Notes: generated by a model from the sequence alone, not told the origin. Shown: positions 26,301-56,948, counted from the stretch's first letter. The stretch is 64,000 nucleotides of DNA from Alphaproteobacteria bacterium (GCA_017935485.1 JAGBHO010000047.1:2285-66284), one strand, 5' to 3'. Program-made: numbers and translations.

Positions 26301-26663
26301 TTAAAAAAGCAGAAGTTGGCCGTTTTTTTCACGAATCTCTTCTTCATTTTCTTCATAATTGTCACCAAGATAGTTTTCTGTCATCAAATATTGTTTATCT
26401 GTTATATAAATGAAGGAGACAGAAGAGTTATCTGGAATAAATTTTGATAATTTTTTTGTAGTCGTCTGACCGACGGCCAGACTTTTGACAGGTTTGATGT
26501 ATACGGAAAATTGTTTCATAACAAAACCATTATCGAGTAGAATATTACGAAAGCGGGTTGCTTTGCGCATTTCTGTTCTGGTTCTGACCGGAATATCAAA
26601 CATGCATATTATCCACATCATAGACCATCCGGTTAAGGTTTCAGGCCGCTGTCTTCTTGCCAT
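26301..26663 (-). CDS. cas2: CRISPR-associated endoribonuclease Cas2, type II
   Basis: 120-aa ORF (probable start MMW...); MFDIP...FRNILLDNGFVMKQFSVY matches the type II Cas2 N-terminus. Overlaps the cas9 stop. Confidence 0.85.
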   Translation of the reverse strand: MARRQRPETLTGWSMMWIICMFDIPVRTRTEMRKATRFRNILLDNGFVMKQFSVYIKPVKSLAVGQTTTKKLSKFIPDNSSVSFIYITDKQYLMTENYLGDNYEENEEEIREKNGQLLLF

Positions 26664-29600: not shown

Positions 29601-30072
29601 TTAAATATAGCGGCAATTTTTCGTAGGAAGATGTTTTAACTTTTGATTGCTCTTCTTCCTGACTTTCATTTAAGGTTTCTTCGACGGCCGAAACAAATCC
29701 TGCTCCGCGATGTTTGGCCAAATGAAGAATGGCTCGTCCGATATAGTTAGCATTATCAAGTTTTTGTTTTATTGCGTCATAGCGTATTTTATAGGGAGAT
29801 TTTGATTTGAGTTTATCCGTTCCTTCGGGAGAATTGTCGACCCAAAGATTATTGGCATAGAGTTTTTGTGCTAACAGTTCTAACCGTTTTCGCGTTCTGA
29901 TTAAATTTTTACGGGCTGTTCTTTTTAGTCGTCTTTCTTCAGCCCCTTCGGAAACTTCAAAAATTCTAACACCTGCATCAATGATATCTTGTGCATTATT
30001 GTTACCATCCAGTTGTATGATTGCACTTCCGATTGAACTTACCCCTAAATCAAGGCCGAGACGATATTTCAT
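26641..30072 (-). CDS. cas9: Cas9, 1143 aa (type II-C size class)
   Basis: RuvC-I GLDLGVSSIGSAII at the N-terminus, HNH (IEHIIPQAKGGTDAYNNLCLVNRNDN), RuvC-III HHAMDAITVA. AGGGGG SD; markedly AT-rich relative to flanks. Confidence 0.95.
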   Translation of the reverse strand: MKYRLGLDLGVSSIGSAIIQLDGNNNAQDIIDAGVRIFEVSEGAEERRLKRTARKNLIRTRKRLELLAQKLYANNLWVDNSPEGTDKLKSKSPYKIRYDAIKQKLDNANYIGRAILHLAKHRGAGFVSAVEETLNESQEEEQSKVKTSSYEKLPLYLKNTNSQTIGEFFYKRLQDKENPHNRIIRQKKYALEKNIVDYAIPRYLVKDEFNKIWDMQAQYFPQMNKDGLKREIYNILFYERPTAPYAVGKCIYFREEDRLLKAHPLSEIRRIYEETNNIRIISDMGKRKLTLQERDTIINELLLKGQNAGKQSIKKILNLSAQQKISLADDKIIKAYLYSRPEFAKNEYIQKLTFQELSSFIEFLAEPKDSNDSKGRLYNEDALIEHIKPLLKINDDKEIGNLLTKLPKGRGMIGLSATQIILEKLKQNICSHREITDELSKNDSRFMAEEEIARQNQGHCFELPYYGKILQTDTQPLPPLTIANNKNLNQDEVKYGKIANPAVHMILNQIRLVVNEIIKIYGKPYEINIEVGRDVGMSVKKKNEFEQEQKRNEKLNEEAKKHLKEHNLPITYKNILKYKLAKEQGWKDAYNPTQNISSTFGGMEIEHIIPQAKGGTDAYNNLCLVNRNDNLTKGDRYAYEYFESQDSQKTPEMIREILKNARDRLKNKAWRFEADTREKYEDGGDKEESTRYLTDTRYVSKMAQRYLRAIVDCSDCDEVMQNRILAVRGAQTAKLRQHWNLLGLEYDLIGLDIPRYFKLAEERVNPHTGEIFDKIKNKEWMAKPRIDHRHHAMDAITVACANRSLIQKMAEETDLNKIYYPLPLLSVESTADFRRKVISCLKKINVSHKPDHSKAGQFHKETGRTVLCSNPDDKNSLITVYSRKILQVVKTAKDLNKLLIPETIKNEWHPEIIENKIKQAKLVQDIELYMNTAEQILIAENEKAVAEGKKEIKITESRILTKAFYIVQDKGLWKGDKFKCYTNSSSMINIPKHGVAYEAQNNHCVDFYQKDGKVGWEVIKRFDANQTDFMPQWKKDGGKIIWSIQQGDILELDTPDEWKNYTDKERCFAKVKKFSEGEFNIDYITDARMTSPKDKSLKYTFVNTLRKGLSYYTSHKARKIELTPFGKIKKKHKVLWNGKKTAA

Positions 30073-39719: not shown

Positions 39720-39795
39720 GGGAGTTTAGCTCAGCTGGAAGAGCATCTCGTTTACACCGAGAGGGTCGGGAGTTCGAACCTCTCAACTCCCACCA
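39720..39795 (+). tRNA. tRNA-Val (anticodon UAC), encoded CCA
   Basis: Acceptor GGGAGTT/AACTCCC, anticodon loop UUUACAC, T-loop TTCGAAC. TTGATT-17-TATAAA promoter upstream; terminator 39798-39832. Confidence 0.85.
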
Positions 39796-39840
39796 ATTAA
39801 AAAACCCGCTTTTATAGCGGGTTTTTTAATTGGATGAAGT

Positions 39841-40045
39841 TGGAAGTGAGAACTCCCGAGAAAGGGAGTTTGACTACCAGCGAAAGGCGGATGAAAAGAC
39901 GCCGGTGAGCAGGGCGAATGAGCGCCTGTGAAACTCGAGCGAAGCGATGAGTAACCCTCAACTCCCACCAATTAAAGAGCCACCCTTGCGGTGGCTTTTT
40001 TGTCTTTAATAGAGGTTCGAACTTTCTCGGGAGTTCTTCTTACTC
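39841..40045 (+). repeat. tRNA-like remnant / MITE-like element: 18-bp inverted repeats GAGAACTCCCGAGAAAG flanking a 107-nt segment carrying tRNA-Val-type 5-prime (GGGAGTTT) and 3-prime (CTCAACTCCCACCA) ends with its own terminator
   Basis: 39957-39976 duplicates 39782-39801 (20/20). IR at 39845-39865 versus 40022-40040. The right flank also holds an inverted partial copy of the tRNA T-arm. Confidence 0.7.
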
Positions 40046-42582: not shown

Positions 42583-42713
42583 TTTATTTCTCCTTTACTT
42601 TTACTTAATTATATAATCATTTTGTTTTTTCTGCAAATATATAATGTTTACATAATATGTTATGATTTTGTTCTGCCAAAGCCGGCAGAATGTTTTTATG
42701 GACAGGAGTGAAA

Positions 42714-43322
42714 ATGATTTATGGATATATTCGCGTAAGCAGCGACAAACAGACGACGGAGAATCAGCGTTTTGAAATTGAGCGTTTTGCAGAAGGCAAT
42801 GGAATTGTGATTGAAAAATGGATAAATGAGACCATCAGTGCAACTAAAGATTTGGAAAAGCGAAAACTCGGCAGGCTTCTTAATGTGCTGAGAACGGGGG
42901 ATATTTTGATTTCTTCCGAGTTATCAAGGTTGGGGCGGAATTTGTTGCAGGTTATGAGTATTTTGCATTTTTGCATGAAGAAAGATATTCAGGTTTGGAC
43001 GATTAAGGACAATTATCGTCTGGGGGCGGATATTCAATCCAAGGTTTTGGCTTTTGCATTCGGATTGTCGGCCGAAATTGAGCGGAATCTGATTTCTCAG
43101 CGTACAAAAGAAGCTTTGGCCCGTTTGAAAGCCGAAGGAAAACGGCTGGGGCGTCCGAAAGGCAGCGGCAACAAGTCTGCCAAATTAAGCGGCAAAGAAG
43201 AAAAAATTGCCGAGATGCTCAGGGAAAATATGTCAAAAAAGAAAATTGCGCAATATTTTTGCGTCAGTCGGCGTACCTTGTATAATTTTATGAAAAAACA
43301 ATTGATAAGCGGGAATAAATAA
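42714..43322 (+). CDS. Serine recombinase (resolvase / DNA invertase family) with C-terminal HTH
   Basis: Start MIYGYIRVSS (catalytic Ser in YIRVSSDKQ); resolvase catalytic domain followed by an HTH. Confidence 0.8.
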   Translation: MIYGYIRVSSDKQTTENQRFEIERFAEGNGIVIEKWINETISATKDLEKRKLGRLLNVLRTGDILISSELSRLGRNLLQVMSILHFCMKKDIQVWTIKDNYRLGADIQSKVLAFAFGLSAEIERNLISQRTKEALARLKAEGKRLGRPKGSGNKSAKLSGKEEKIAEMLRENMSKKKIAQYFCVSRRTLYNFMKKQLISGNK

Positions 43323-43497
43323 CGGACATATAATTTTCTCATATGGCGCTATCTTAAATAATAAAAAAAATTATTCAAGCACTATTTATATAAAAGTGAC
43401 AGTTTTATTGGATAAATTTTAACTGCCTGTCTCCATATGTTTTATTTTTGCCCAAAATAACTTTCGTGATTTTTTATGAGAAAATTATATGTCCGTT
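43322..43497. promoter_or_regulatory. Candidate invertible promoter: 130-bp segment between perfect 23-bp inverted repeats, carrying TTGAAT-16-TAAGAT on the minus strand
   Basis: IR-L 43322-43344 AACGGACATATAATTTTCTCATA; IR-R 43475-43497 is its exact reverse complement; -35 at 43374-43379 and -10 at 43352-43357 (minus strand). Confidence 0.55.
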
Positions 43498-43749
43498 TTC
43501 AGGGCATTAAAGATGCGTAATTGGAGAGTGTTTGGAGTTTTGCTGACATGGCGATTACAGGCAGTAGAGCGAGTGTTTGTCTGATGTCGTCAGGAGTATC
43601 AGGTACGGATGATTATCGGGGTGTTCCGGCTATGTTCAGGAAATATATATTTCTAAAATCCGGAAGGTACCGTTTTATATCTATTTTATTTGCCGGTATT
43701 TGTCACCATCCCGATAACTCTTATGTTCTCCGCCGGGCAGGAGTTTTTT

Positions 43750-44613
43750 ATGGTTAAAATTTCGGTATTGATGCCGGTTTACAATACAGATGAAAAATTT
43801 TTACGGCAGGCAATAGAAAGTATTTTGGAGCAAACGTATCAGGATTTTGAATTTCTGATTATTAATGACTGTTCTTCCGATGCCCGTGTTGAGAAGGTGG
43901 TTTTATCTTATAAAGACAAGCGGATTAAATATTCGGTCAATTCTCAAAATCTGGGGATTTCCGGAACGCGGAACAAATTGATAAGTCTGGCCAAAGGTGA
44001 ATATTTGGCTGTGATGGATCATGATGATGTTTCTTTGCCGGAACGTCTGGAGAAAGAAGCCGCTTTTCTTGATGCTCATCCGGAAGTCGGCGTTGTCGGA
44101 TGTGCCGTCCGTTATCTGGGGACGCCAAAGGTCAGAAAACTGCCCGAAGATGATGGCAGTGTCAGAGAAGCTCTTGTCTTTTTCAGCCCGTTTTGTCATC
44201 CGGCCACGATGATCCGCAAATCCGTTTTACAGAATTGCGGTGTTGCTTATGAAGCCGAATTCAGTCCGGCTGAGGATTATGCCTTATGGAGTCGCCTGAT
44301 GTCGGTGACGAAATTTGCCAATTTGCCGGATGTCCTTTTTGAATATCGGGATTATTGCGGCAATACAACACATTCTCAAAAAGAAAAAATGCAATCGGCA
44401 GCCAGTCGTGTTCAGCAGAGCATTCGTCAGGCTTATCCGGCTCTTTGGGCAAAGGCAAAAGAGAATGCCGATTGGGTAAAAAGGATTAAGCTGTTTGGTT
44501 TTTTACCTTTTTTGACAATCAGAAAGCGGTGCAATTTTCACGAGGCGAAGTTGTTTGGCATTTTGCCGCTGTGGTCTGAGAGAATAAAATATTCAGCAGG
44601 AGGAGAAAAGTAG
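43750..44613 (+). CDS. Family-2 glycosyltransferase
   Basis: Start MVKISVLMPVYN; DxD motif DHDD. Confidence 0.75.
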   Translation: MVKISVLMPVYNTDEKFLRQAIESILEQTYQDFEFLIINDCSSDARVEKVVLSYKDKRIKYSVNSQNLGISGTRNKLISLAKGEYLAVMDHDDVSLPERLEKEAAFLDAHPEVGVVGCAVRYLGTPKVRKLPEDDGSVREALVFFSPFCHPATMIRKSVLQNCGVAYEAEFSPAEDYALWSRLMSVTKFANLPDVLFEYRDYCGNTTHSQKEKMQSAASRVQQSIRQAYPALWAKAKENADWVKRIKLFGFLPFLTIRKRCNFHEAKLFGILPLWSERIKYSAGGEK

Positions 44614-44614
44614 C

Positions 44615-45499
44615 ATGAAGGGCATTATTCTTGCCGGCGGCAGCGGAAGCCGATTGTATCCGCTGACGCAAACCATTTCAAAACAACTGCTGCCGGTTTA
44701 TGACAAGCCGATGATTTATTATCCGTTGTCAACCTTATTGTTGTTCGGTATCAGGGAAATTCTGATTATTTCAACGCCCAAAGATACACCGAATATTCAG
44801 GCTTTATTTAAGGACGGTTCCCATTTGGGGCTGCAAATTCATTATGCCATTCAGAATGAGCCGAAAGGAATTGCCCAGGCTTTTACCATCGGTGCCGATT
44901 TTATCGGAGATGACGATGTTTGTCTTATTTTAGGAGACAATATTTTTTATATGGGCGGGCAGATTGATACTTTTCGCACAGAAGTTTTGCGCAATCCGGG
45001 AGCGACGGTTTTCGGGTATCATGTTTCTGATCCCGAGCGTTTTGGCGTGGTGGAATTTGATAAAGACTTTAAAGCCGTTTCTATCGAAGAAAAGCCGGTG
45101 AAGCCGAAATCTAATTATGCCGTGGTCGGATTGTATTTTTATAAATCGGATGTTGTGGAAAAAGCCAGAAACCTGCAGCCTTCGGCGCGCGGCGAATTGG
45201 AAATTACCGATTTGAACAAGCTTTATCTGGAAGAGGGGAGGATGAATGTGGTGCCGATGCGGCGCGGCAACGCCTGGCTTGATGCCGGTACGCCCGACAG
45301 CCTGATGGAGTCTTCCCAGTTTGTACAGATTATCGAGCAACGGCAGGGGCTTAAAATTGCCTGTATTGAGGAAATTGCCTATCGGCGCGGTTTTATTAAT
45401 GACGAACAGATGGCGGCTTTGATTGCCTCGCTTAAAAACGGCTGTGCTTATAAGAAGTATCTGCAGAAGATTTATGAGGAGTATCATGGAATTTATTAA
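44615..45499 (+). CDS. rmlA: Glucose-1-phosphate thymidylyltransferase
   Basis: 294 aa; GGSGSRLYPLT signature. Confidence 0.9.
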   Translation: MKGIILAGGSGSRLYPLTQTISKQLLPVYDKPMIYYPLSTLLLFGIREILIISTPKDTPNIQALFKDGSHLGLQIHYAIQNEPKGIAQAFTIGADFIGDDDVCLILGDNIFYMGGQIDTFRTEVLRNPGATVFGYHVSDPERFGVVEFDKDFKAVSIEEKPVKPKSNYAVVGLYFYKSDVVEKARNLQPSARGELEITDLNKLYLEEGRMNVVPMRRGNAWLDAGTPDSLMESSQFVQIIEQRQGLKIACIEEIAYRRGFINDEQMAALIASLKNGCAYKKYLQKIYEEYHGIY

Positions 45500-46034
45500 G
45501 ACGGAAATTGACGGTGTTTATATTTTGGAACCGCGGGTTTTTGAAGATGCCAGAGGGTATTTCTTTGAGATTTACAATCAAAATGAATTTGCCGCGCATG
45601 GCCTGGATTATGACTTTGTGCAGGATAATCAGTCGAGGTCTTCTTACGGCACTGTCCGCGGACTGCATTTTCAAAAAGGGGCGTTTGCGCAAGCCAAGCT
45701 GGTGCGCGTGATTGAGGGGACAGTGCTGGATGTCGGTGTTGATTTGCGTTCCGGTTCCAAGACTTTCGGAAAATATGTTGCGGTCGAATTGTCAGGCGAA
45801 AACAAGCGCCAACTCTTGCTGCCGCGCGGTTTTGCCCATGGTTTTTCCGTATTGAGCGAAACTGCGGTGTTTTCTTATAAATGCGATAATTTTTACAATC
45901 CGGCGAGCGAAGGCGGTATTCGTTTTGATGATCCGGATCTGAATATTGATTGGAAAGTTAACCTTAAAGATGCAGTGCTGTCGGATAAGGATTTGAAAAT
46001 GCCGTTTTTTAAGGAGTGTGAGCCTTGTTTTTAG
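45486..46034 (+). CDS. rmlC: dTDP-4-dehydrorhamnose 3,5-epimerase
   Basis: Start MEFIKTEIDGVYILEP; cupin fold motifs (RGLHFQ). Confidence 0.85.
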   Translation: MEFIKTEIDGVYILEPRVFEDARGYFFEIYNQNEFAAHGLDYDFVQDNQSRSSYGTVRGLHFQKGAFAQAKLVRVIEGTVLDVGVDLRSGSKTFGKYVAVELSGENKRQLLLPRGFAHGFSVLSETAVFSYKCDNFYNPASEGGIRFDDPDLNIDWKVNLKDAVLSDKDLKMPFFKECEPCF

Positions 46035-46849
46035 TAACGGGAGCGAACGGGCAGCTGGGGCAGGAACTGCGGCTTATTCTCGGGGATAAGGCCGTGTATG
46101 TCGATTATGCCGATTTGGATATTACGGATGCGGCGGCGGTCAGGGAGTTTTGCCGGACGCGGGAATTTGAGGCGATTATCAATTGTGCGGCTTATACGGC
46201 AGTGGACAAGGCGGAAAGCGAGCCGGAAAAAGCGCAGAACGTGAATGTGAACGGGCCGAAGAATTTGGCAGAAACCGGTATTCCTCTGATTCATGTTTCA
46301 ACGGATTATGTTTTTGACGGTCAGAGTTGCCGTCCTTATAAAGAAAATGATTTGCCGGCACCGCATTCGGTTTACGGACGGACCAAGCTTGCCGGAGAAC
46401 AGGCTGTTTTGGAGAGAGCTTCGGCAACGTTTGTTTTTCGGACTTCCTGGCTGTATTCGCCGTTTGGCAACAATTTTGTGAAGACGATGCTACGGCTGGG
46501 TGCTGAAAGGGACGTACTTAAGGTGGTGTTTGACCAGATCGGGACGCCGACTTATGCCGCTCATCTGGCGCAGGCGGTAGTTGCTGCTTTGCCGTATTTG
46601 AAAAAAGGGAGCAGGGAGGTTTATCACTTTAGCAATGAGGGTGTTTGTTCCTGGTATGATTTTGCCGTGGAGATTATGGCGCAGGGCGGACGGAATTGCA
46701 AGGTTTTGCCGATTGAAAGCAAGGATTATCCGACAGCGGCGGAGCGTCCGGCCTTTTCGGTGCTGAACAAAGAAAAGTTTAAAACAAGTTTTGGGATGGA
46801 AATTCCCCATTGGAAGAAAGGGCTGGAAGAATGTCTGAAGCGATTTTAG
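46025..46849 (+). CDS. rmlD: dTDP-4-dehydrorhamnose reductase
   Basis: 274 aa; GANGQLG Rossmann motif. Confidence 0.85.
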   Translation: MFLVTGANGQLGQELRLILGDKAVYVDYADLDITDAAAVREFCRTREFEAIINCAAYTAVDKAESEPEKAQNVNVNGPKNLAETGIPLIHVSTDYVFDGQSCRPYKENDLPAPHSVYGRTKLAGEQAVLERASATFVFRTSWLYSPFGNNFVKTMLRLGAERDVLKVVFDQIGTPTYAAHLAQAVVAALPYLKKGSREVYHFSNEGVCSWYDFAVEIMAQGGRNCKVLPIESKDYPTAAERPAFSVLNKEKFKTSFGMEIPHWKKGLEECLKRF

Positions 46850-47838
46850 TTACCGGCGGCGCCGGATTTATCGGTTCTAATTTTGTGCCGTATTTTGTAA
46901 ATAAATATCCGGAATATCAGGTGATTAATCTGGATAAACTGACTTATGCCGGTAATTTGGACAATCTGGCAGAATGTGCAGGTAAGGCAAATTACCGTTT
47001 TGTGCAAGGAGATATTTGTGATGCGGCGTTTGTTGAAAAGCTGTTTGCGGATTACGACATTCGCGGGGTAGTTCATTTTGCGGCGGAAAGCCATGTTGAC
47101 AATTCGATTTCCGGCCCGCGCCCCTTTGTTGAAACAAATATTGTCGGGACGTTCAACTTGCTTGAAACCGCCCGGAAGCATTGGATGGACGCGCCGGCGA
47201 AATGCAAGCCCGGTTATGAAAAATGCCGTTTTCATCATATCTCGACCGATGAGGTTTACGGCTCGCTGGGTGAAGACGGATTTTTCAAAGAGACAACGCC
47301 GTATGCGCCGAATTCACCTTATTCGGCTTCCAAAGCAAGTTCTGATTTTCTGGTGCGGGCGTATTTTCATACTTTCGGTATGAACGTGACGACTTCTAAC
47401 TGTTCAAATAATTACGGTCCGAAGCAGCATCCGGAAAAGCTGATCCCCAAGATTATCAGCAATTGCCTGAACGAAAAGCCGATACCAGTTTACGGCGACG
47501 GCAAGAATATCCGCGACTGGCTGTATGTGCTTGACCACTGCAAAGCGATTGATTTGATTTATCATCGGGGCAGAGCCGGTGAGACCTATAACGTGGGCGG
47601 GCATAACGAGAAGACCAATCTGGAAATCGTTTCGGAAATCTGCCGGATTATGGATAAAAAGAAACCGCGTGCCGGCGGCAAGAAATATGCCGATTTGGTT
47701 ACTTTTGTAGCTGATCGCGCCGGACATGACAGGCGCTATGCCATTGATGCCGACAAACTGACAAACGAACTGGGCTGGAAAGCCGATGAGAATTTTGCTT
47801 CCGGCATTATCAAAACCGTGGAGTGGTATGTGAAATGA
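46831..47838 (+). CDS. rmlB: dTDP-glucose 4,6-dehydratase
   Basis: Start MSEAILVTGGAGFIGSNF; YxxxK (YSASKASSD) catalytic motif. Confidence 0.9.
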   Translation: MSEAILVTGGAGFIGSNFVPYFVNKYPEYQVINLDKLTYAGNLDNLAECAGKANYRFVQGDICDAAFVEKLFADYDIRGVVHFAAESHVDNSISGPRPFVETNIVGTFNLLETARKHWMDAPAKCKPGYEKCRFHHISTDEVYGSLGEDGFFKETTPYAPNSPYSASKASSDFLVRAYFHTFGMNVTTSNCSNNYGPKQHPEKLIPKIISNCLNEKPIPVYGDGKNIRDWLYVLDHCKAIDLIYHRGRAGETYNVGGHNEKTNLEIVSEICRIMDKKKPRAGGKKYADLVTFVADRAGHDRRYAIDADKLTNELGWKADENFASGIIKTVEWYVK

Positions 47839-49580
47839 AGCCAATACTTGTTCATGCTCATGTTTTTTATTCCGAATTATGGCCGGAGCTTAAATCTTGC
47901 ATCCAAAATCTGGCCGATTATCCGTTTGAGCTTTTTGTAACAATGGTTGTTGATAATAATGAGCTTAAGGCTGATGTAGTGTCGGCTTTTCCCAAAGCTC
48001 ATATTGAGGTTGTTGAAAACCGGGGTTTTGATGTGGGGCCGTTTGTTCATGTATTAAGCCAAGTCGATTTGGATGATTATAGTTATGTTGTGAAGCTGCA
48101 TACCAAACGGGATATGTTTTTGGGCGCTCATTTGAAATATTTTGATATGTCTGGAGCAAAATGGCGTCTTTATGCGTTGGCTATTTTAAAGTCTGAAAAG
48201 GTTGTAAAAAATATAATAAGCGCTTTTGAAAAAGATAAAAAGCTGGGGATGGTGGCGGATTATCATCTGATTGTCAATAAAGAACAAGATGATATTCAGG
48301 CTCAACAGGAAGCAATAAAAATCTTAAAACAACTTGGGTATGAGAATATATCTTATGGTTATGTTGCCGGTACAATGTTTTGGTGCAGAGCATTTCTTCT
48401 CAGCCCCTTAAAAAGGCTGGGTTTTGATCTCTCTGATTTTGAAGAGTCTTCCGCTCATTGTAAAATTTCTACAAAGGCTCATGTGCTGGAACGTTTGTTG
48501 GGATGTCTGGTCTTTGCTCAATCTCAAAAAATTGCAGATTCTATCACTTTTATACAGTTTTCTGGAAAAATCTGTGAAACAGGCCGGAAAATGAAGAGGT
48601 TTTTCTTTCAAAGGAAAATGGATTGTACAGGAAAAATAAAAGTTAAAATATGTGGAATCGGTTTCTCTATAGAGAAATGTAGAGATAGAATATGTAATAA
48701 GGGAAGTAAAATGATAGTTAGTAATATTCTTTCTGTTGATGAGGTTTCTTTGTCGAATAATAAAAGACTTAGATGTTTAGTTTCTAGCCTTCGTCATCCG
48801 TTTAATAAGCAAAAACGTAGAAAATTGAGGGAAGAGCTAATTGAAAAGTATAAAGTAAGAAAATCTTCTTTTAAAAAGGATCCTAATTTCAATGTAAAAG
48901 ATATTCCTATATATTTGATATCTTATAATAGGCTAGGATATTTACAGCAAATGATAACCAAGCTAGAGATGTATGGTCTTACAAATATTCATATTATTGA
49001 TAATCATTCTGATTATGAGCCTTTGTTGGCATATTTAAATGTATTGCCTTATCATGTTTATTTCATGGATAAAAATTATGGACACAGGGTATTTTGGGAG
49101 TCAGGTTTATTTGATGATATCATTCAACACTCTTTATATATAGTATCAGATCCAGATATTGAGTTTAATGCAGATTTGCCTGATGGTTTTTTGTCAGAAT
49201 TATACCGTCTGTTAGGGGAGTATAAGTGTGTAACTAAAGTTGGTTTTGCATTAAAAATAGATGATTTGCCTCAGAATAAGGTTAATGAGACGGTTATTGC
49301 TTGGGAAAGTCGTTTTTGGAAAAACAGACTGAAAGATCGCCTTGATATTTATCATGCAGATATAGATACGACTTTTGCATTGTATCGTCCTGGAAAATTA
49401 GATGAAAGATTTTTTTACTCAGCAATTCGTGTGGCAGGGAATTTTACTGCTAAGCATTTGCCCTGGTATCAAAATGGAAATAATGCTGATGATATTAAAC
49501 ATTATAATCGGACATCTGATTCAAGATTTGCTTCTTGGACAAAAGATATTCAACGTTATAATAATATAATGGAGGGATGA
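47835..49580 (+). CDS. Rhamnan-synthesis protein F (RgpF)-like rhamnosyltransferase fused to a C-terminal glycosyltransferase-like domain
   Basis: About 580 aa; N-terminal RgpF-like block; GC content drops sharply from about 48600 onward, suggesting domain fusion or acquisition. Confidence 0.6.
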   Translation: MKPILVHAHVFYSELWPELKSCIQNLADYPFELFVTMVVDNNELKADVVSAFPKAHIEVVENRGFDVGPFVHVLSQVDLDDYSYVVKLHTKRDMFLGAHLKYFDMSGAKWRLYALAILKSEKVVKNIISAFEKDKKLGMVADYHLIVNKEQDDIQAQQEAIKILKQLGYENISYGYVAGTMFWCRAFLLSPLKRLGFDLSDFEESSAHCKISTKAHVLERLLGCLVFAQSQKIADSITFIQFSGKICETGRKMKRFFFQRKMDCTGKIKVKICGIGFSIEKCRDRICNKGSKMIVSNILSVDEVSLSNNKRLRCLVSSLRHPFNKQKRRKLREELIEKYKVRKSSFKKDPNFNVKDIPIYLISYNRLGYLQQMITKLEMYGLTNIHIIDNHSDYEPLLAYLNVLPYHVYFMDKNYGHRVFWESGLFDDIIQHSLYIVSDPDIEFNADLPDGFLSELYRLLGEYKCVTKVGFALKIDDLPQNKVNETVIAWESRFWKNRLKDRLDIYHADIDTTFALYRPGKLDERFFYSAIRVAGNFTAKHLPWYQNGNNADDIKHYNRTSDSRFASWTKDIQRYNNIMEG

Positions 49581-50452
49581 TGCCTAAAGTTTCTGTACTA
49601 ACACCTTTATATAATACGAATAAAGTACATTTGCAAGAAATGATTGCTTCAGTATTGGAACAGTCATTTCAGGATTTTGAGTTTATTTTGTTAAATGATT
49701 CTCCTGAAAATAAGGAGATTGAACAAATTGTTAAATCTTATAAGGATAAAAGAATAAGATATTATTGTAATGAAAGAAATTTGGGAATTTCGGCCAGCAG
49801 AAATAAATTAATTGATTTGGCAAAAGGGGAATATTTGGCCATTTGTGATCATGATGATATTTCTGTTCCGGATAGATTTGAAGCACAGGTTGCTTATTTG
49901 GATAAGAATCCTGCAGTAGGTGTTGTATCTGGTTTATGTGAAGTTTTTGGTGGTGGAACACATGTGTTTCAGCAGCATCCGGAGTTTGATTTGGATATAA
50001 AAATTCATTTGACGAAAGGTTGTTATTTGGCACATCCAGCATCAATGATACGAAAAAGTGTGTTGTTATCTAATGATATTTGTTACAATGAAAGATATTC
50101 TCCCGCGGAAGATTATAAATTGTGGGAAGATTTAATAGATGTTACAAATTTTTATAATCTACAAAAAGTTTTGTTAAAGTATCGAAGTTTTGATGCAAAT
50201 ACTTCTGTTTTGCAAAATAGAATTATGATTGAAGCATCAAGAAAAATACAGTTGGAAATTAGAGATAAGCACCCTTCTTATTATGATGAAATATCTAGAG
50301 AAATTCCGCTTTCTGAAAAGACTTCCGAAAAGGTTTATTATAAACTATTCGGGATAGTTCCACTGATTAAGATTACCAAGAATAAAGTTTATTTGTTTAA
50401 CATTGTTCCGTTGCTGACAATAAGGAGAAAAACATGCAGAAGCCCAAGATAA
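49577..50452 (+). CDS. Family-2 glycosyltransferase (paralog of the 43750 gene)
   Basis: 291 aa; SVLTPLYN...DHDD; AT-rich. Confidence 0.75.
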   Translation: MMPKVSVLTPLYNTNKVHLQEMIASVLEQSFQDFEFILLNDSPENKEIEQIVKSYKDKRIRYYCNERNLGISASRNKLIDLAKGEYLAICDHDDISVPDRFEAQVAYLDKNPAVGVVSGLCEVFGGGTHVFQQHPEFDLDIKIHLTKGCYLAHPASMIRKSVLLSNDICYNERYSPAEDYKLWEDLIDVTNFYNLQKVLLKYRSFDANTSVLQNRIMIEASRKIQLEIRDKHPSYYDEISREIPLSEKTSEKVYYKLFGIVPLIKITKNKVYLFNIVPLLTIRRKTCRSPR

Positions 50453-51400
50453 CTTTAGGAATTGTTTTTTACAATCAACGAAATTTTATTAAGGATGCTA
50501 TAGCTTCCGTGAAGAATCAGACTATTGATGGGTGGGAATGTATAATTTATGATGATGGGTCTTCAGATGGTTCGGATGAGATAATTTTACGTGAAATATG
50601 TAATGATGGTCGTTTTATTTTTAAACGTTCAGAGAAGCGTAATTTTACACCGTCTGTTGGTCGGAATTATTGTTTGGATCATGTAAAAGGAAAATATGTA
50701 TGTTTTCTGGATGGCGATGATATGTTGGTTAAAAATGCTTTCGAAATTATGTATGGCGTAGCGGAAGCCGGAAATTGTGATATGGTGTCTTGCGGGGCTC
50801 CAAATTATAATATTTCAGTTCCTGTCGATTTTCACTATCATACGGATTTGCCGGCTGCTGGATGTGTAAATGATATTGTTTTTGTGAATACCCCAGTGCC
50901 AGATGGTAGTGCATGGAGATTAAATGGTGATATTGAAAATGGTTGGATCTGGGGTATTCTTTATAAAAAAGAAACTATAAAAGATATTCGTTTTGATTAA
51001 AAGCTGAGACCTTATGAAGATTCATTGTTTTTTATGAATGCATCTCTGGTGATTAAAAGATTTGCGGTAATGAAGACTTCCAGTGTTTTTCATAGAGAAA
51101 ATTCAGGTATTACGAATAAAGGAATAAGTGATGAGATCTTACCGGCAATAGACTCGTTTTTTCAAAAAGCATATTTATTAATCGGTGAGCAATACAGGGG
51201 GGGGGGTATATGATGCCTGGTTGAAAAATATGTGTCGAATATTGCTAAAGCATACGTGGTATATTTATAAATATTGTTATGCAGAGACGAAAGATAAAGT
51301 AAATCTTGTGAGAAAAATTCGTGATTATGCTAAGCCGTATGAAAAATTTGAACCGTGCGGATTAAAAATAATGTTACGCAAACTAAGAATGAAATTGTAA
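50434..51400 (+). pseudogene. Family-2 glycosyltransferase disrupted by an in-frame TAA (50998-51000, in the expected FDEKLRPYEDS motif) and a G10 homopolymer frameshift; candidate phase-variable gene
   Basis: Frame 1 runs 50434-51213; G10 at 51197-51206. With G9 the reading frame would continue to 51400. Confidence 0.6.
51197..51206 (+). repeat. Poly-G tract (10 G) inside the GT2 pseudogene
   Basis: Counted directly from the sequence. Confidence 0.95.
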
Positions 51401-51414
51401 AAAGGAGATTATAA

Positions 51415-52677
51415 ATGAAGTGGAATAAGCCGGGGCATGAGTTTGATGAGTTAGGCGGCAAGTTTATTAAAAACCGAAAGTTGATTGTGATTGGAGATGA
51501 CTTTGATCAGGCCAGTTTTTATCTAAATCGCAGGATAACGGATGTATTGCAGTTCTTAAATGTTCCTGTTAAATTGGTAAAGTTTTCAATAAAAAATCTT
51601 CAAAAAAAGTGGTTTACCAAATTAATAATACATATGTTAAACTTTAAATACAAATTGTTCAAGCAACACGCTGTTATTATTACACATTATAAGTATCAAG
51701 ATGTGAATAAGGCTATTATGTTGCGTAATATTTTGAAAGAGATATTTCCTAATCTTATGGTTTATGATTCGACAGAGTTTTTGGAAAAACAAATGTCAAT
51801 ATTTGCAGCGTATGTACAAGATAAAATTTATGTTCGTGATACCTGCATTATTGTTACAACGGGATGTACATTAAATTGTAAATATTGTTTGAATTTTACT
51901 CCTTTTATTAAACATGCAAAATCAATTTCTTTAGAAAAACTAAAAGAAGAAGCAGATATTTATTTTAAGGTTGTTGATTATGTCGGATTTTTTCAAATTA
52001 GTGGCGGAGAACCGCTTACTTATAAATATTTAGCTGAGTATATTGAGTGGGTGGCTGAAAAATATAGTAATCAAATTGGACAGATATTGTTGGCAACAAA
52101 TGGTACGTTATTGCCAGATGAAAGATTGGCAAATGTGTTAAAAAAATATGGTGTTATTTTACTTTTAGATAATTATACTCAAGCGGTTCCATCGACAAAA
52201 CCCACACGCGATAAATTAATAAACTTTTTGGAGGAACATGGTATAGATTCTCGTGATTATGGTGAAAATCAGCAGTTTTTTAAATTTTTTCCAGCCAATG
52301 AAGATTACTCAAAATTATCAGAAAAAGAGCTTTCTGAACGAGCTGATAAATGTTGGGGATTGCAACCTTGGCGAAATTTACGCGATGGGCGGATTTATTA
52401 TTGTAATTTTTCATCCTTTGCCGTTACAGCGGGTATTATTCAGGATGATCCTCGTAATTATATGGATTTGAAAAATTTTGATTGCTCAAAGAAGAAAGAA
52501 TTGCTTGAATTTTTTATGGGCTATTCAGTATTAGGATATGATACTTTTTGTACTTTGTGTAATGGTATAAATGAGAGTAACACCTTGGAACGGCGACCAG
52601 CAGGGGAGCAAGCCAAAGGAAAATTTGGCTGGCATTCCGGAATGACCTTGTCTGAGTTTGAGGAGATGAACTTATGA
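51415..52677 (+). CDS. Radical SAM protein (CxxxCxxC = CTLNCKYC), function unknown, within the glycan cassette
   Basis: 420 aa; canonical radical-SAM cluster motif; extra C-terminal Cys cluster (CTLCNG). Confidence 0.65.
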   Translation: MKWNKPGHEFDELGGKFIKNRKLIVIGDDFDQASFYLNRRITDVLQFLNVPVKLVKFSIKNLQKKWFTKLIIHMLNFKYKLFKQHAVIITHYKYQDVNKAIMLRNILKEIFPNLMVYDSTEFLEKQMSIFAAYVQDKIYVRDTCIIVTTGCTLNCKYCLNFTPFIKHAKSISLEKLKEEADIYFKVVDYVGFFQISGGEPLTYKYLAEYIEWVAEKYSNQIGQILLATNGTLLPDERLANVLKKYGVILLLDNYTQAVPSTKPTRDKLINFLEEHGIDSRDYGENQQFFKFFPANEDYSKLSEKELSERADKCWGLQPWRNLRDGRIYYCNFSSFAVTAGIIQDDPRNYMDLKNFDCSKKKELLEFFMGYSVLGYDTFCTLCNGINESNTLERRPAGEQAKGKFGWHSGMTLSEFEEMNL

Positions 52678-53354
52678 GTTTTTTGAAAAAGTATCGAAAG
52701 CTTTCTCAGAATAAAGCCAGATTAAAACAATTTTATAATGCCGGGAATTCTATAATTATTATAGAGGGCGAAAAGACAATTGTTAATCCAGCTGAATTTT
52801 TAGAACTTGAACTTTTAAGGATTCCTTGGGGGGGGGTGCAACTTATAATACATAGGCCGTTTGCATTTAAAATGTTGTCTTTGGATGTATGTGGTAATTT
52901 GAGTGTTGAAATTTGCGAAAATATTATTGAGCCAGTCGGACATATCAGAATACTTAAGGCTGTCGGTGATGTTAAAAATTATGTATATATAGGAAAAGGT
53001 TCAGGGATAGGGGATGCTGTTTTTGATGTAACACTTCACGGTAATATAGAAATTGGAGATGCATGTACAATGTCTTGGGGTGTTATGTTGAAAACCGATG
53101 ATACACATCCAATTTATCAAAATGGAAAAATAATTAACCGAAGTAAAAATATTATAATTGGTAAGAATGTATGGATTGGTATGCATGCGTCAATTTTAAA
53201 AAATAGTATGATACCTGACGGGGCTATCGTTGGTGCCTATTCGGTAGTGGCCGGGCGGTTCGATGAAAAGAATTCTGTTATAGCGGGAAATCCGGCCAAA
53301 GTTGTAAAACGTGATGTCCAATGGAAATGTGGACTTATTGATTATAATGATTAA
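52674..53354 (+). CDS. Hexapeptide-repeat (left-handed beta-helix) sugar O-acetyltransferase with an internal G9 tract
   Basis: 226 aa; hexapeptide repeats NVWIGMHASILKNSMIPDGAIVGAYSVVAG; G9 at 52828-52836 lies in-frame inside the CDS as called. Confidence 0.65.
   Translation: MSFLKKYRKLSQNKARLKQFYNAGNSIIIIEGEKTIVNPAEFLELELLRIPWGGVQLIIHRPFAFKMLSLDVCGNLSVEICENIIEPVGHIRILKAVGDVKNYVYIGKGSGIGDAVFDVTLHGNIEIGDACTMSWGVMLKTDDTHPIYQNGKIINRSKNIIIGKNVWIGMHASILKNSMIPDGAIVGAYSVVAGRFDEKNSVIAGNPAKVVKRDVQWKCGLIDYND
52828..52836 (+). repeat. Poly-G tract (9 G) within the acetyltransferase CDS
   Basis: Counted directly from the sequence. Confidence 0.95.
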
Positions 53355-53413
53355 TTTTTGTTTCTTTACATTTTGCTTTTTTCTGTAATAATGGAAGAAA
53401 ATAATGATGGGAG

Positions 53414-53677
53414 ATGAAGATGGCGGCGAGAGTAGCGATTGTCGGGATTATTGTTGAAAATCCGGAGGCGGTGGAAAAGCTTAATGCAATTTTGCATGAG
53501 TATGCCGCTTTTATCATCGGCCGGATGGGGATTCCTTATCGCGAAAAGAAGGTGAGCATTATCAGTATTGCCGTAGATGCGCCGCAAGATGTAATCAGTG
53601 CCATGGCGGGAAGAATAGGGCGACTGAACGGCGTGTCGGCCAAAACCGTTTATTCGGCCAAAGAGGCTGAAAATTAA
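53414..53677 (+). CDS. Small ACT-like protein resembling the TM1266-type putative iron-only hydrogenase system regulator
   Basis: 87 aa; immediately upstream of hydG, as in many FeFe-hydrogenase maturase clusters. Confidence 0.5.
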   Translation: MKMAARVAIVGIIVENPEAVEKLNAILHEYAAFIIGRMGIPYREKKVSIISIAVDAPQDVISAMAGRIGRLNGVSAKTVYSAKEAEN

Positions 53678-53772: not shown

Positions 53773-55191
53773 ATGTATGATCCGAAATCATTAAAGGCGG
53801 AGGAGTTTATCTGCCATCAGGAAGTTCTGGATACGCTGGAATTTGCCGAGAAGAATAAAAACAATCGCAAACTTATTGATAAAATTCTGGAAAAAGCCCG
53901 TTTGCGCAAGGGATTGAGCCATAGAGAGGCTATTGTGCTGCTGGACTGTGCGCTTGAAGACAAAAACAAAGAAATTTTTGCTTTGGCCGAACAGATTAAA
54001 AAAGACTATTACGGTAACCGTATTGTTATGTTTGCGCCGCTGTATCTGTCCAATTATTGTGTCAACGGCTGTGTTTATTGCCCTTATCATGCCAAAAACA
54101 AACATATTGCGCGCAAAAAGCTGACGCAGGAAGAAATTGCCCGTGAGGTTATTGCTTTGCAGGATATGGGGCACAAGCGTCTGGCTCTGGAGGCGGGGGA
54201 AGATCCGGTCAACAATCCGATAGAGTATATTCTGGAAAGTATCAAAACCATCTATTCCATTAAGCATAAAAACGGTGCAATCCGCCGTGTAAATGTTAAT
54301 ATAGCTGCAACAACGGTTGAGAATTATCGCAAGTTGAAAGAAGCCGGTATCGGCACTTATATTCTTTTTCAGGAAACTTATCATAAAGAAAGTTATGAAA
54401 AACTGCATCCCAAAGGCCCGAAGCATAATTATGCCTATCATACCGAGGCGATGGACAGAGCCATGGAGGGCGGTATTGACGATGTCGGGCTCGGGGTTTT
54501 GTTCGGGCTGGAATTGTACCGTTACGAGTTTGCCGCTCTTTTGATGCATGCCGAGCATCTGGAAGCTGTTCACGGCGTGGGGCCGCATACGATCAGCGTG
54601 CCGCGGATTAAGCATGCCGACGATATTGATCCGAACGTTTTTGACAATGGCATTGACGATGATATTTTTGCCAAGATTATTGCATGCATCCGGATTTCGG
54701 TGCCTTATACCGGTATGATTATTTCAACGAGAGAGAGCAAGGCCTGTCGGGAAAAAGCTTTGCATTACGGCATTTCGCAAATCAGCGGCGGTTCCAAAAC
54801 CAGTGTCGGCGGATATGCCGAAGAGGAACCCGAGGATCATAAATCCGAACAATTTGACGTCAGCGACAAAAGAACTCTGGATGAGGTTGTCCGCTGGCTG
54901 ATGGAGCAGGGATACGTGCCGAGCTTTTGTACGGCTTGTTATCGCGAAGGCCGGACCGGCGACCGTTTCATGGCCTTGTGCAAAAATATGCAAATTCATA
55001 ACTGCTGTCTGCCCAATGCCCTGATGACCCTGAAAGAATATATACAGGATTATGCGTCACCTGAGACAAAGCTGCTTGGCGAAGCTTTGATTGCTTCTGA
55101 ACTGGATAATATTCCGAATGAAAAGGTCAGAAATATTGTTAAGGCTAATTTGGAAAATATTGTCAAAGGACAGCGTGATTTTCGTTTTTAG
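53773..55191 (+). CDS. hydG: [FeFe]-hydrogenase maturase HydG (radical SAM tyrosine lyase; ThiH paralog with C-terminal Cys motif)
   Basis: 472 aa; CVNGCVYC radical SAM motif and C-terminal CTACYREGRTGDRF...C pattern typical of HydG rather than ThiH. Confidence 0.75.
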   Translation: MYDPKSLKAEEFICHQEVLDTLEFAEKNKNNRKLIDKILEKARLRKGLSHREAIVLLDCALEDKNKEIFALAEQIKKDYYGNRIVMFAPLYLSNYCVNGCVYCPYHAKNKHIARKKLTQEEIAREVIALQDMGHKRLALEAGEDPVNNPIEYILESIKTIYSIKHKNGAIRRVNVNIAATTVENYRKLKEAGIGTYILFQETYHKESYEKLHPKGPKHNYAYHTEAMDRAMEGGIDDVGLGVLFGLELYRYEFAALLMHAEHLEAVHGVGPHTISVPRIKHADDIDPNVFDNGIDDDIFAKIIACIRISVPYTGMIISTRESKACREKALHYGISQISGGSKTSVGGYAEEEPEDHKSEQFDVSDKRTLDEVVRWLMEQGYVPSFCTACYREGRTGDRFMALCKNMQIHNCCLPNALMTLKEYIQDYASPETKLLGEALIASELDNIPNEKVRNIVKANLENIVKGQRDFRF

Positions 55192-55403
55192 AACGTTTTT
55201 TTCCATGTCTAATCGATTGAATCTCCCGAGCAGTTTTCGGGAGATTTTTTTTGTCGCATTTGTTGTGCAAATATTAGGAAATCCGAGGATTTCAAAGAAT
55301 TATCCACAGAAACGTTTTTAAAGTCTTAAGCACCTTGATTCGGGGTAAAAGGCATATTATTTTTTACGGCATAATAAATTTTTCATTATTAGGAATTTTA
55401 GTT

Positions 55404-56948
55404 ATGAGTAAAAAAGTTATGTTTTCAACCCATGGTCTGGTTGAAGGTGATTTTGCCTATAAAACAGATGAGCTGGGCTTTCCGACCAATGAGGTCATTT
55501 CCAAAAAAGTTATTACGGGGCAGGATACCGGCGGGCAGGTTTATTATGTCAAAGCGCTGGCTTCCATTTATGACAAAGATTATGATGTAGATTTGGTTAC
55601 CAGAAGGGTTGATCCGAGAATTTGCCCGCAATTCGGCGGCACATTTAAAGATTTGGGGTCGGATATCAATTATACCGTAGAAAAACAATGGCATGAAGTT
55701 GATGCCGGGTTGCACGGACGTGCCAGAAGCAATGTGCTGCGTGTTCCGGCAGGCGGTAATTTTGCTTTTGTTCCGAAAGAGGAAATTGTTCCTTTGCTGG
55801 ACGAATTGATTGATAATCTGGTTGATTATTATAAAAAAGAAGGTTCTTACGAGGATATTGAGGTTGTTGAGGGACATTACCGCGACGGTATGCTGGCCGC
55901 ATCAATGTTGTGCGACAGAGTAGAGAAAGATACGGGACGCCGTCCGGTTATGCTGGTGACAAGCCACTCTCTCGGCCATAAAAAATATGAGAGAAATCTG
56001 CCCAAATATGAAAACGGCGAGATTCCCGACGAAGTTTGGCAATGGCATAATTTTGAAGAGCGTATCAGCCATGAGAAATACGGTTTTGATCAGGCAGACA
56101 TTATTATTGCCACGTCTCCGGACGAGGAGCGCCGTCTGGCCGCAGATCCTTATCTGGCTGATGTCAACAAAGTGACCGTAATTCCGCCGGGGTATAACAG
56201 CCTGTTGTTTAAACCGATGGCAGAAGAGGCAAAGCAGGCTTTGGTTTCTGATTTTGTATATCAGGATCTTGACGGCAACGAGCGCCATATTAACCTGAGC
56301 GGCCGGAAAGTCGTTTCTTCTTTAGGGCGCGTTGTGCCTGATAAGGGTTTTGTCGAGCTTTCCAGAACAATGAAAGAGATTATTGCCAAAGACCGTAACG
56401 TTATTTATATGGTCAGCGGAGAAAAAGGCAACCCCGTTACCGAAGAATGCAAGAAAGAATTGGACGGCGTGTTGGATAATGTTGTTTTTCTGCCGTCTTT
56501 GAATCAGGGACAAATGGCGCGGGTTTATAACGCTTCTTCAATCTTTGTCATGTCAAGCCTGAATGAAGCTTTCGGCATGGTTCCGCTTGAGGCGATGGGA
56601 TGCGGTACGGCGGTTGTTGTCGGACGCAGCGGCTTTAATGATTATGCCCATTGCGCCGATATCCGCCATGACAATGAAGATTTCAGCAAAGCAATCGGTT
56701 TTTATGCGCCATCGCAGGAAGTTGACCGCCGGCGTCAGGTTAAAGCCGTATCGTTGCTGCTGAACAACGAAGAACTCAGAAAGCAGGTAGCGCGGAACGG
56801 TTATGATTTTGTTTCTAAAAACCTGACATGGCAGCAGATTGCCAATAAGAAAAACATGCTTATTCGTGAGGTTATCAGACAAAGAGGAAGCAGGAGGATT
56901 GCCGCCGGCGAAAATTTTTTTAGACGAGCCGTCGGTTACAGCCTGTAA
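55404..56948 (+). CDS. GT4-family glycosyltransferase (sucrose-phosphate-synthase-like)
   Basis: About 515 aa; TGGQVYYV motif characteristic of SPS/sucrose-synthase-type GT-B enzymes. Confidence 0.65.
   Translation: MSKKVMFSTHGLVEGDFAYKTDELGFPTNEVISKKVITGQDTGGQVYYVKALASIYDKDYDVDLVTRRVDPRICPQFGGTFKDLGSDINYTVEKQWHEVDAGLHGRARSNVLRVPAGGNFAFVPKEEIVPLLDELIDNLVDYYKKEGSYEDIEVVEGHYRDGMLAASMLCDRVEKDTGRRPVMLVTSHSLGHKKYERNLPKYENGEIPDEVWQWHNFEERISHEKYGFDQADIIIATSPDEERRLAADPYLADVNKVTVIPPGYNSLLFKPMAEEAKQALVSDFVYQDLDGNERHINLSGRKVVSSLGRVVPDKGFVELSRTMKEIIAKDRNVIYMVSGEKGNPVTEECKKELDGVLDNVVFLPSLNQGQMARVYNASSIFVMSSLNEAFGMVPLEAMGCGTAVVVGRSGFNDYAHCADIRHDNEDFSKAIGFYAPSQEVDRRRQVKAVSLLLNNEELRKQVARNGYDFVSKNLTWQQIANKKNMLIREVIRQRGSRRIAAGENFFRRAVGYSL

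Follow-up and report, generated by a model that had tools for sequence, protein, structure and literature searches.

The window analysed here is a stretch of 64,000 nucleotides from an Alphaproteobacteria bacterium (GCA_017935485.1 JAGBHO010000047.1:2285-66284), and its subject is a 177-bp element that lies between a serine recombinase gene and a set of glycan biosynthesis genes and whose core inverts in nature. We regard it as quite probable that the element is an inverton, an invertible DNA segment, of an uncultured gut alphaproteobacterium, that it switches a rhamnose-glycan operon of about 10 kb, and that it is flipped by the Mpi-family invertase encoded beside it. A preliminary description of this DNA had read the region as an invertible promoter switch, and that reading is supported. 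The activity of the promoter, the direction of control, the limits of the operon and the role of the recombinase as catalyst are what we infer from the sequence. The features on which the argument turns are as follows.

42714-43322, plus strand: Mpi-family serine recombinase (DNA invertase), 202 amino acids; Pfam Resolvase, NCBIfam NF009949.
43321-43343, plus strand: left inverted repeat (IRL), AACGGACATATAATTTTCTCATA; the inversion boundary lies here in all flipped contigs.
43344-43474, no strand assigned: invertible core, 131 nt; in the window orientation the promoter faces the recombinase gene, predicted OFF.
43351-43378, minus strand: predicted outward sigma-70-type promoter, with -35 TTGAAT (43378-43373), a 16-nt spacer and -10 TAAGAT (43356-43351).
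43396-43422, minus strand: conserved element upstream of the promoter, reading TTAAAATTTATCCAATAAAACTGTCAC on the minus strand, at about -45 to -75; 21 of 27 columns invariant.
43475-43497, plus strand: right inverted repeat (IRR), TATGAGAAAATTATATGTCCGTT.
43498-43749, plus strand: 5' leader from the switch to the first glycan gene; the first ~110 nt variable, the last ~140 nt conserved among relatives.
43611-43720, plus strand: conserved structured leader RNA, a three-way junction, supported by conservation, fold z-score and covariation.
43750-53354, plus strand: predicted switched operon, 10 genes, ~10 kb; co-directional, with overlaps or short gaps.

The inversion is seen in natural assemblies. 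Contigs were gathered through exact-protein look-up of the recombinase, of the neighbouring DksA/TraR-like protein and of the GT2 protein, with one further match from a JGI metagenome; the sample comprises 20 independent assemblies that carry this locus or an orthologue of it (individual contigs and loci are given below as L001, L002 and so on). Orientation was called contig by contig, according to whether the promoter block faces the recombinase gene or points away from it. The core lies as in the window in 11 of the 20 (L001, L003, L004, L005, L007, L010, L091, L096, L097, L103 and L011) and is flipped in nine (L002, L006, L008, L009, L098, L101, L012, L013 and L014). Differences between the flipped contigs and the window are confined to the 131 nt between the arms, where the flipped core is the reverse complement of the window core at 98-100% identity, and the flanks are unchanged. 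Relatives with the same repeats around a flipped segment, which the preliminary description had proposed to look for, make up nine of the 20 assemblies.

Both states recur on the same genetic backgrounds. The 'TT' core allele, defined by two single-nucleotide polymorphisms, is ON in L002 and OFF in L004, L005 and L096; one downstream haplotype is ON in L006 and L098 and OFF in L001, L007, L097 and L103; and the haplotype of the window itself is ON in L008 and L009 and OFF in L003. These haplotypes are near-identical (>98%), with variation at only 23 positions across ~1.5 kb. With both orientations present on each of three haplotypes, one old inversion cannot account for the data, and no fewer than three independent flips are required. 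The inversion is real, a conclusion in which our confidence is very high, and flipping is recurrent in nature. Five loci in the sample (L011, L012, L013, L014 and L101) are orthologues at species-level distance, of which L011 has the window orientation and the other four are flipped; the recombinases of L011, L012, L013 and L014 are 97, 96, 94 and 82% identical, respectively, to that of the window. The identical recombinase protein is present on many independent metagenome contigs, and a scan of species-representative genomes assigns the locus to uncultured Alphaproteobacteria of the gut, sampled from humans, mice and ruminants.

The boundaries of the inverting segment coincide with an exceptional pair of repeats. 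A repeat search of the window returned perfect 23-nt arms, 100% complementary and separated by 131 nt, as its longest perfect spaced inverted repeat. With three mismatches allowed, the 23-mer matches at only two places in the 64 kb, and it has no match in 100 shuffles. The preliminary description was right about the perfect 23-nt arms, but the left arm begins at 43321 rather than 43322 and the spacing is 131 rather than 130 nt. It had also set the left repeat at the end of the recombinase gene, where the stop codon (TAA, 43320-43322) indeed overlaps the arm by two bases; the arms flank a short intergenic segment directly 3' of that gene. No further copy of the repeat that might serve the recombinase as a target was found in the 64-kb window or in the 111 fetched loci, and a scan of JGI metagenomes for the repeat returned a single contig, which matches the present locus only.

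The outer end of both arms reads A-ACG-GA-CAT. In L014 the two arms have only AACGGACGT in common, within which ACG-GA-CGT forms a dyad about the central GA. Since serine recombinases cleave at the central dinucleotide of a dyad-symmetric site, the crossover core is placed at ACG-GA-CAT (43322-43329), with strand exchange predicted at GA (43325-43326). Similar cores are found in the repeats of more distant loci of the family: AAACGGACGA in L073, AACGAACGA in L084, AACGAAC in L035, L037 and L086, and AACGGA in L034. The consensus of the Mpi repeats is said to be ARACGTWCGT, which would be similar to the AACG(G/A)AC core of these sites.

The product of the adjacent gene is the kind of enzyme that such an element calls for. 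It matches Pfam Resolvase (PF00239, E 1.5e-32) and scores 318.9 bits, against a curated cut-off of 272, on the NCBIfam equivalog model NF009949, 'master DNA invertase Mpi family serine-type recombinase' (E 1.3e-95), with an alignment that covers model positions 1-198 of 203; its earlier assignment to the resolvase/invertase family is borne out. The closest solved structure is that of the Gin invertase (4m6f, E 2.2e-13). The catalytic motif is GYIRVSSDKQ, whose Arg7 and Ser9 align with the Arg and Ser9 of Gin, and the RLGR motif is present, although Ser takes the place of the Asp of the Gin sequence DRLGR, both here and in each of the six family recombinases that were aligned. Sub-threshold matches to HTH_38 and HTH_23 mark a C-terminal helix-turn-helix at residues 163-194. 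From its family and its position, this recombinase quite probably catalyses the inversion. The gene also carries terminator-like hairpins, one on the plus strand in its 5' untranslated region (42669-42692) and two weak ones on the minus strand inside its 3' end (43263-43249 and 43222-43210), just downstream of the OFF-oriented promoter; these might limit expression of the recombinase or antisense read-through.

What the inversion moves is better judged from the conservation of the core than from the match to the promoter consensus. Conservation was scored as invariant columns among five species-level versions (window, L011, L012, L013 and L014) oriented alike. The block from the -35 to just past the -10 is the best-conserved part of the segment (31 of 36 columns), whereas the promoter-distal half of the core retains 14 of 52 invariant columns and contains an 11-nt indel. 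In the aligned relatives the promoter always adjoins one arm and reads outward through it, and outward promoters beside a repeat are seen in the related invertons of L034 and L064 as well. About 20-45 nt upstream of the -35 there is a conserved stretch of 27 nt, a candidate UP element or activator-binding site. The preliminary description had called the minus-strand TTGAAT-16-TAAGAT a good promoter; its position and conservation stand, but its match to the consensus is weak (8 of 12 positions). It had also stated that the promoter is currently aimed away from the glycan genes, in agreement with the window orientation, in which the promoter is directed antisense into the 3' end of the recombinase gene with a predicted transcription start near 43344 on the minus strand. 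The window thus represents the state predicted to be OFF. After inversion, transcription is predicted to start at the junction of core and right repeat, with a 5' untranslated region of ~275 nt.

The sequence between the switch and the glycan genes points to transcription from the same direction. The first gene begins at ATG 43750, 252 nt past the right arm and so close to the earlier estimate of about 250 bp. The leader measures 252, 252, 244, 252 and 288 nt in five relatives, and its last ~140 nt are nearly invariant, L014 included. Within this part the ~110-nt structured RNA has a mean column identity of 94% among the five relatives and a fold z-score of -3.18, and none of 200 shuffles folds equally well. 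Its three helices are P1 (UUAUCGGGGUG/CACCAUCCCGAUAA), P2, a nested hairpin, and P3 (AGGUACC/GGUAUUU). Orthologous copies lie at 6898-7007 in L011, 6889-6998 in L012, 3188-3297 in L013 and 6932-7041 in L014, and a covariance model built from five sequences recovered a sixth copy in L065 (6882-6991, 88.7 bits), where it follows an Mpi-like gene and an 11-bp repeat pair and stands directly before rmlA. Two-sided changes occur at 12 pairs, compared with 1-2 in slid controls, and 95.8% of cells pair, in an alignment that was fitted to its own model and includes one weak match (L018, E 0.01); in L065, compensation between paired bases is visible by eye in P1, in P2 and in the inner hairpin. A covariation-supported fold on the plus strand implies that transcription enters this DNA from upstream, the side on which the promoter would lie after inversion. 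Rfam has no family for the leader or the switch at E values up to 10, and we consider the RNA a candidate for a new element that regulates, in cis, the glycan operons of gut Alphaproteobacteria.

Two other readings of the leader were tried and rejected. A 69-amino-acid open reading frame reported by gene callers (43548-43757) is not coding, as the differences in leader length are not multiples of three and conservation is lacking in the 5' part. The sequence GGCAGTAG at ~43560 resembled the ops/JUMPstart antitermination element of E. coli, but it is not conserved in L011-L014.

From these observations we propose the following mechanism. The Mpi-family invertase would bind the two 23-bp repeats at the 3' end of its own gene, and strand exchange, probably at the GA of the quasi-palindromic ACG-GA-CAT, would flip the 131-bp core. 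In the OFF state, that of the window, the single outward sigma-70-type promoter of the core would fire leftward, antisense into the recombinase gene; in the inverted, ON state it would fire rightward through the right repeat and the ~250-nt leader with its structured RNA into the ~10-kb operon. The resulting population would be a mix of glycan-expressing and non-expressing cells. That the switch gates the glycan operon in this manner we hold to be probable.

Several observations weigh against this interpretation: (i) With its 8 of 12 consensus positions, the predicted promoter was not listed by a promoter scan. (ii) A second promoter-like sequence, TTGTCA-16-TATGTT (43700-43727), lies downstream of the switch and could drive expression independent of orientation. 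(iii) The recombinase is assigned to the site by adjacency and family only, and the related locus L015 retains the recombinase without a local inverton, so that the enzyme may act elsewhere too, or another enzyme may act here. (iv) No genes for Wzx/Wzy or for the Wzm/Wzt ABC exporter were found among the proteins scanned. (v) Both orientations were observed between samples and not inside one sample, which leaves switching at the population level inferred rather than observed. Other explanations were weighed. The inversion might be real without acting as an ON/OFF gate if the operon depends mainly on a fixed promoter in the conserved leader, or on transcription that reads through from the recombinase gene; in that case the flip would merely modulate expression, or mainly control antisense transcription across the recombinase gene and hence autoregulate the switching rate. 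The downstream promoter-like site would suit such a scheme, and so would the antisense direction of the promoter in the window and the weak minus-strand hairpins in the recombinase gene at its 3' end. The -10 of the downstream site, however, is not conserved in L014, and the site lies inside the 3' strand of P1, part of a covariation-supported fold that implies a start further upstream. Since, in addition, the rest of the core is far less conserved than the invertible promoter block, and related invertons (L034 and L064) likewise place an outward promoter beside a repeat, we think it unlikely that the switch is no gate.

A second line of explanation concerns the origin of the two orientations. 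They could be a polymorphism, neither programmed nor linked to the recombinase, that arises when the 23-bp repeats on rare occasions undergo RecA-dependent homologous recombination, an idea that draws on the same facts that the enzyme is tied to the repeats by adjacency and family and that the differences are seen between samples only. Yet at least three independent flips have occurred among near-identical haplotypes, and the adjacency of recombinase and inverton is kept across species and in relatives whose recombinases are 62-66% identical. In L014 and L065 the arms are identical over only 9-11 bp, too short for efficient homologous recombination, and the layout is nevertheless preserved; the AACG(G/A)AC core, moreover, is common to the repeats across the family. 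We judge RecA-dependent recombination a very unlikely source of the two states. It is scarcely credible that the flipped contigs are assembly artefacts. Inverted repeats can mislead de Bruijn graph assemblers if the k-mer is shorter than the repeat, but arms of 23 nt are below the usual k-mers and far below read length, the junctions are spanned by unique sequence, and contig names (NODE_, k119_/k141_, scaffold_ and Logan) point to different assembly pipelines behind both orientations, which are also found in diverged species whose cores differ in sequence.

The operon that the inverton is predicted to switch has the following genes, identified from Pfam.

43750-44613, plus strand: GT2, first gene of the operon, ATG at 43750 with a GGAG ribosome-binding site.
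44615-45499, plus strand: rmlA.
45486-46034, plus strand: rmlC.
46025-46849, plus strand: rmlD.
46810-47838, plus strand: rmlB.
47823-49580, plus strand: RgpF-like.
49577-50452, plus strand: GT2, second.
50434-51400, plus strand: disrupted GT2.
51197-51206, plus strand: homopolymeric G10 tract in the preceding GT2 gene; its length differs between strains.
51415-52677, plus strand: radical SAM.
52674-53354, plus strand: hexapeptide acyltransferase.

Beyond it lie the following genes.

53414-53677: TM1266-like hydrogenase regulator.
53773-55191: HydG, 935 bits on the HydG model.
55335-56948: GT4 glycosyltransferase.
57108-58364: histidyl-tRNA synthetase-like gene.

The preliminary description gave the glycan locus as about 18 kb. 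Its gene order, GT2-rmlA-rmlC-rmlD-rmlB-RgpF-like-GT2-GT2, holds, but the controlled unit is about 10 kb, because the TM1266-like gene, HydG and the synthetase-like gene interrupt the longer stretch and because strong terminator-like hairpins stand at 55219, 56981 and 58381, after HydG, the GT4 gene and the synthetase-like gene, respectively. No strong terminator-like hairpin was found within the switched operon, the first being that at 55219. In L015 (recombinase 4196-4807, 80% identical) the upstream genes are the same, the inverton and the ~10 kb of glycan genes are absent, and the recombinase gene runs straight into the TM1266-like gene and HydG. This layout indicates that ~43321-53400 of the window is one insertable cassette, gained or lost as a unit. 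The G+C content is 0.30-0.35 across 48000-53000, the distal half of the cassette, compared with 0.40-0.48 around it; low G+C is usual for variable glycan clusters. The gene content suggests a rhamnose-containing glycan with a presumed surface location. LpxK and a Kdo transferase are encoded elsewhere in the window, so the organism makes lipopolysaccharide.

A second source of variation may lie inside the operon. The G-tract region of other contigs was reached through the neighbouring radical SAM gene. The tract is G9 in L105, L106 and L107, and the GT2 is intact at 321 amino acids in L105 and L106; it is G10 in the window, L104, L110 and L111, where the reading frame is broken. The tract also forms the start of contigs L108 and L111. 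This GT2 gene, within the operon that the inverton is predicted to switch, is probably subject to slipped-strand phase variation. The window and L104 also share a GAA-to-TAA nonsense codon (50998-51000) in the same gene, beside the G10, so that the GT2 allele of the window may simply be decaying; an exact-protein look-up of the shortened GT2 (50434-51000) gave no match.

Invertible promoters before polysaccharide loci are well known (PMC11602134, PMC11892184, PMC13343947). The closest counterpart of the present element is found in Bacteroides fragilis, whose capsule promoters are flipped by an Mpi-family serine invertase (Krinos 2001 and Coyne 2003, cited through PMC4747536 and PMC10403206); there Mpi is one master enzyme that acts in trans on 13 dispersed sites, seven of them capsule promoters (PMC4747536). 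The two systems share the NF009949 enzyme, short repeats around a small promoter segment directly upstream of a polysaccharide operon, and a gut host. They differ in that the recombinase gene here abuts the single site detected in the 64-kb window and related loci, in that the host is an alphaproteobacterium with a predicted promoter of the sigma-70 type (-35 and -10) rather than the -33/-7 type of Bacteroides, and in that UpxY/UpxZ genes are absent and a structured leader RNA follows the switch; in more distant relatives of the window locus, a catalytically dead Mpi paralogue follows it instead.

Likeness to Bacteroides capsule invertons, extending to the enzyme family, is the part of the earlier comparison that stands; the likeness drawn to hin and fim does not, since here the recombinase gene is outside the segment and fim uses tyrosine recombinases. 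In the hin system the invertible segment, ~1 kb long, contains the recombinase gene itself, and Hin requires Fis and an enhancer within the gene. Hin/hix and Gin/Cin resemble the window system as small serine invertases with a C-terminal helix-turn-helix, and Hin too flips a promoter segment between short repeats. The recombinase gene of the window, unlike the hin-type arrangement, lies at 42714-43322 outside the 177-bp element, its stop codon alone overlapping the left arm, and its protein scores as Mpi family rather than Hin/Gin. The fimS and RecV switches are likewise short invertible promoter segments with ON/OFF control of surface structures, and in fim the recombinase genes are adjacent to and outside the element. 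The window enzyme is a serine recombinase, whereas FimB/FimE of E. coli and RecV of C. difficile are tyrosine recombinases (PMC6083910, PMC7446863).

In Akkermansia muciniphila, another gut bacterium outside Bacteroides, the cps1 inverton lies beside a capsule locus, both orientations are present in sequence data, and orientation correlates with capsule production (PMC13343947). Its repeat motif is different (CGGATT..AATCCG), its ON and OFF states are backed by experiment where ours are called from sequence alone, and the text of the paper names no recombinase (0 occurrences; PMC13343947). In the literature searched, no paper was found that links invertons with RF32, the alphaproteobacterial order to which we guess that the organism belongs. 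Phase-variable surface glycans shape the escape of gut bacteria from phages and host immunity; Bacteroides has been studied thoroughly in this respect, and Akkermansia has followed more recently. The same strategy, with the same enzyme family, now appears in gut Alphaproteobacteria of a lineage for which metagenome-assembled genomes are the only source, and what speaks for the switch there is the natural flipping observed in gut metagenomes of humans and animals.

The wider recombinase family was surveyed at 80 related loci, which are heterogeneous. Many precede a convergent gene, some adjoin restriction-modification genes, and at least 10 precede glycan genes (L011-L014, L034, L064, L065, L073, L084 and L086). 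A perfect-seed inverted-repeat search found clear invertons in only a minority of the 80. With so many loci in these other settings, the link to glycan genes is not universal for the family. The layout of an Mpi-like gene, a short inverton with an AACG(G/A)AC-core repeat and glycan genes nevertheless recurs in L034, L064, L065, L073, L084 and L086. In L017, L018, L019 and L025, members of the family stand beside type I restriction-modification specificity and DNA methylase genes, with long inverted repeats of 328 bp in L019 and 24 bp in L025, which suggests that the same recombinase family drives specificity-gene shufflons at those loci.

In seven of these distant relatives, an arrangement not present in the window, the first gene past the inverton is an Mpi-derived paralogue of ~190 amino acids, as listed here.

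L034, 3713-4273: dead Mpi paralogue.
L035, 6820-7398: dead Mpi paralogue.
L037, 6829-7419: dead Mpi paralogue.
L064, 1019-1594: dead Mpi paralogue.
L073, 6831-7421: dead Mpi paralogue.
L084, 6801-7442: dead Mpi paralogue.
L086, 6837-7388: dead Mpi paralogue.

These proteins score only 30-103 bits on the Mpi family model. They lack Arg7, Ser9 and the second Arg of RLGR and have a 10-residue deletion, and they keep the E-helix and the helix-turn-helix. The glycan genes that follow them include DegT, WbqC, GT2, nucleotidyltransferase, Glf and RgpF. Placed under an inverton, such a dead recombinase could influence switching or act on other loci. By binding the same repeats it might fix the switch in one state or tilt its balance; alternatively, it might cross-regulate loci elsewhere, much as UpxZ does in Bacteroides. 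A more general proposal, which we put forward tentatively and consider doubtful at present, is that Mpi-type invertases of uncultured gut Alphaproteobacteria, instead of acting as one master enzyme, form portable, cis-acting modules of recombinase and inverton before single glycan operons, each coupled to a second regulatory layer. That layer, previously undescribed, may be either the three-way-junction leader RNA (window, L011-L014 and L065) or the dead paralogue (the seven loci above), and at other loci such modules may adjoin restriction-modification genes.

Upstream of the switch, the window contains a tRNA gene (39720-39792) and, ~160 nt downstream of it, a second copy of the tRNA 3' end (CTCAACTCCCACCAATTAAA), possibly the relic of an attachment site. 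In the same region, 157 nt are bracketed by a perfect inverted repeat of 16 nt (39849-39864 and 40022-40037); it was considered as a second inverton and rejected, as L003, the sole other contig covering it, has the same orientation. A scan of the whole window with Rfam returned only two tRNAs and one borderline match to the Trp leader (39796-39885, minus strand; 43.3 bits against a threshold of 41). Further upstream, a Cas1 gene (24027-24944, plus strand) and a gene for a 1143-amino-acid Cas9-like protein with RuvC_III, HNH and Cas9 alpha-helical lobe domains (26641-30072, minus strand) indicate a type II CRISPR-Cas locus.

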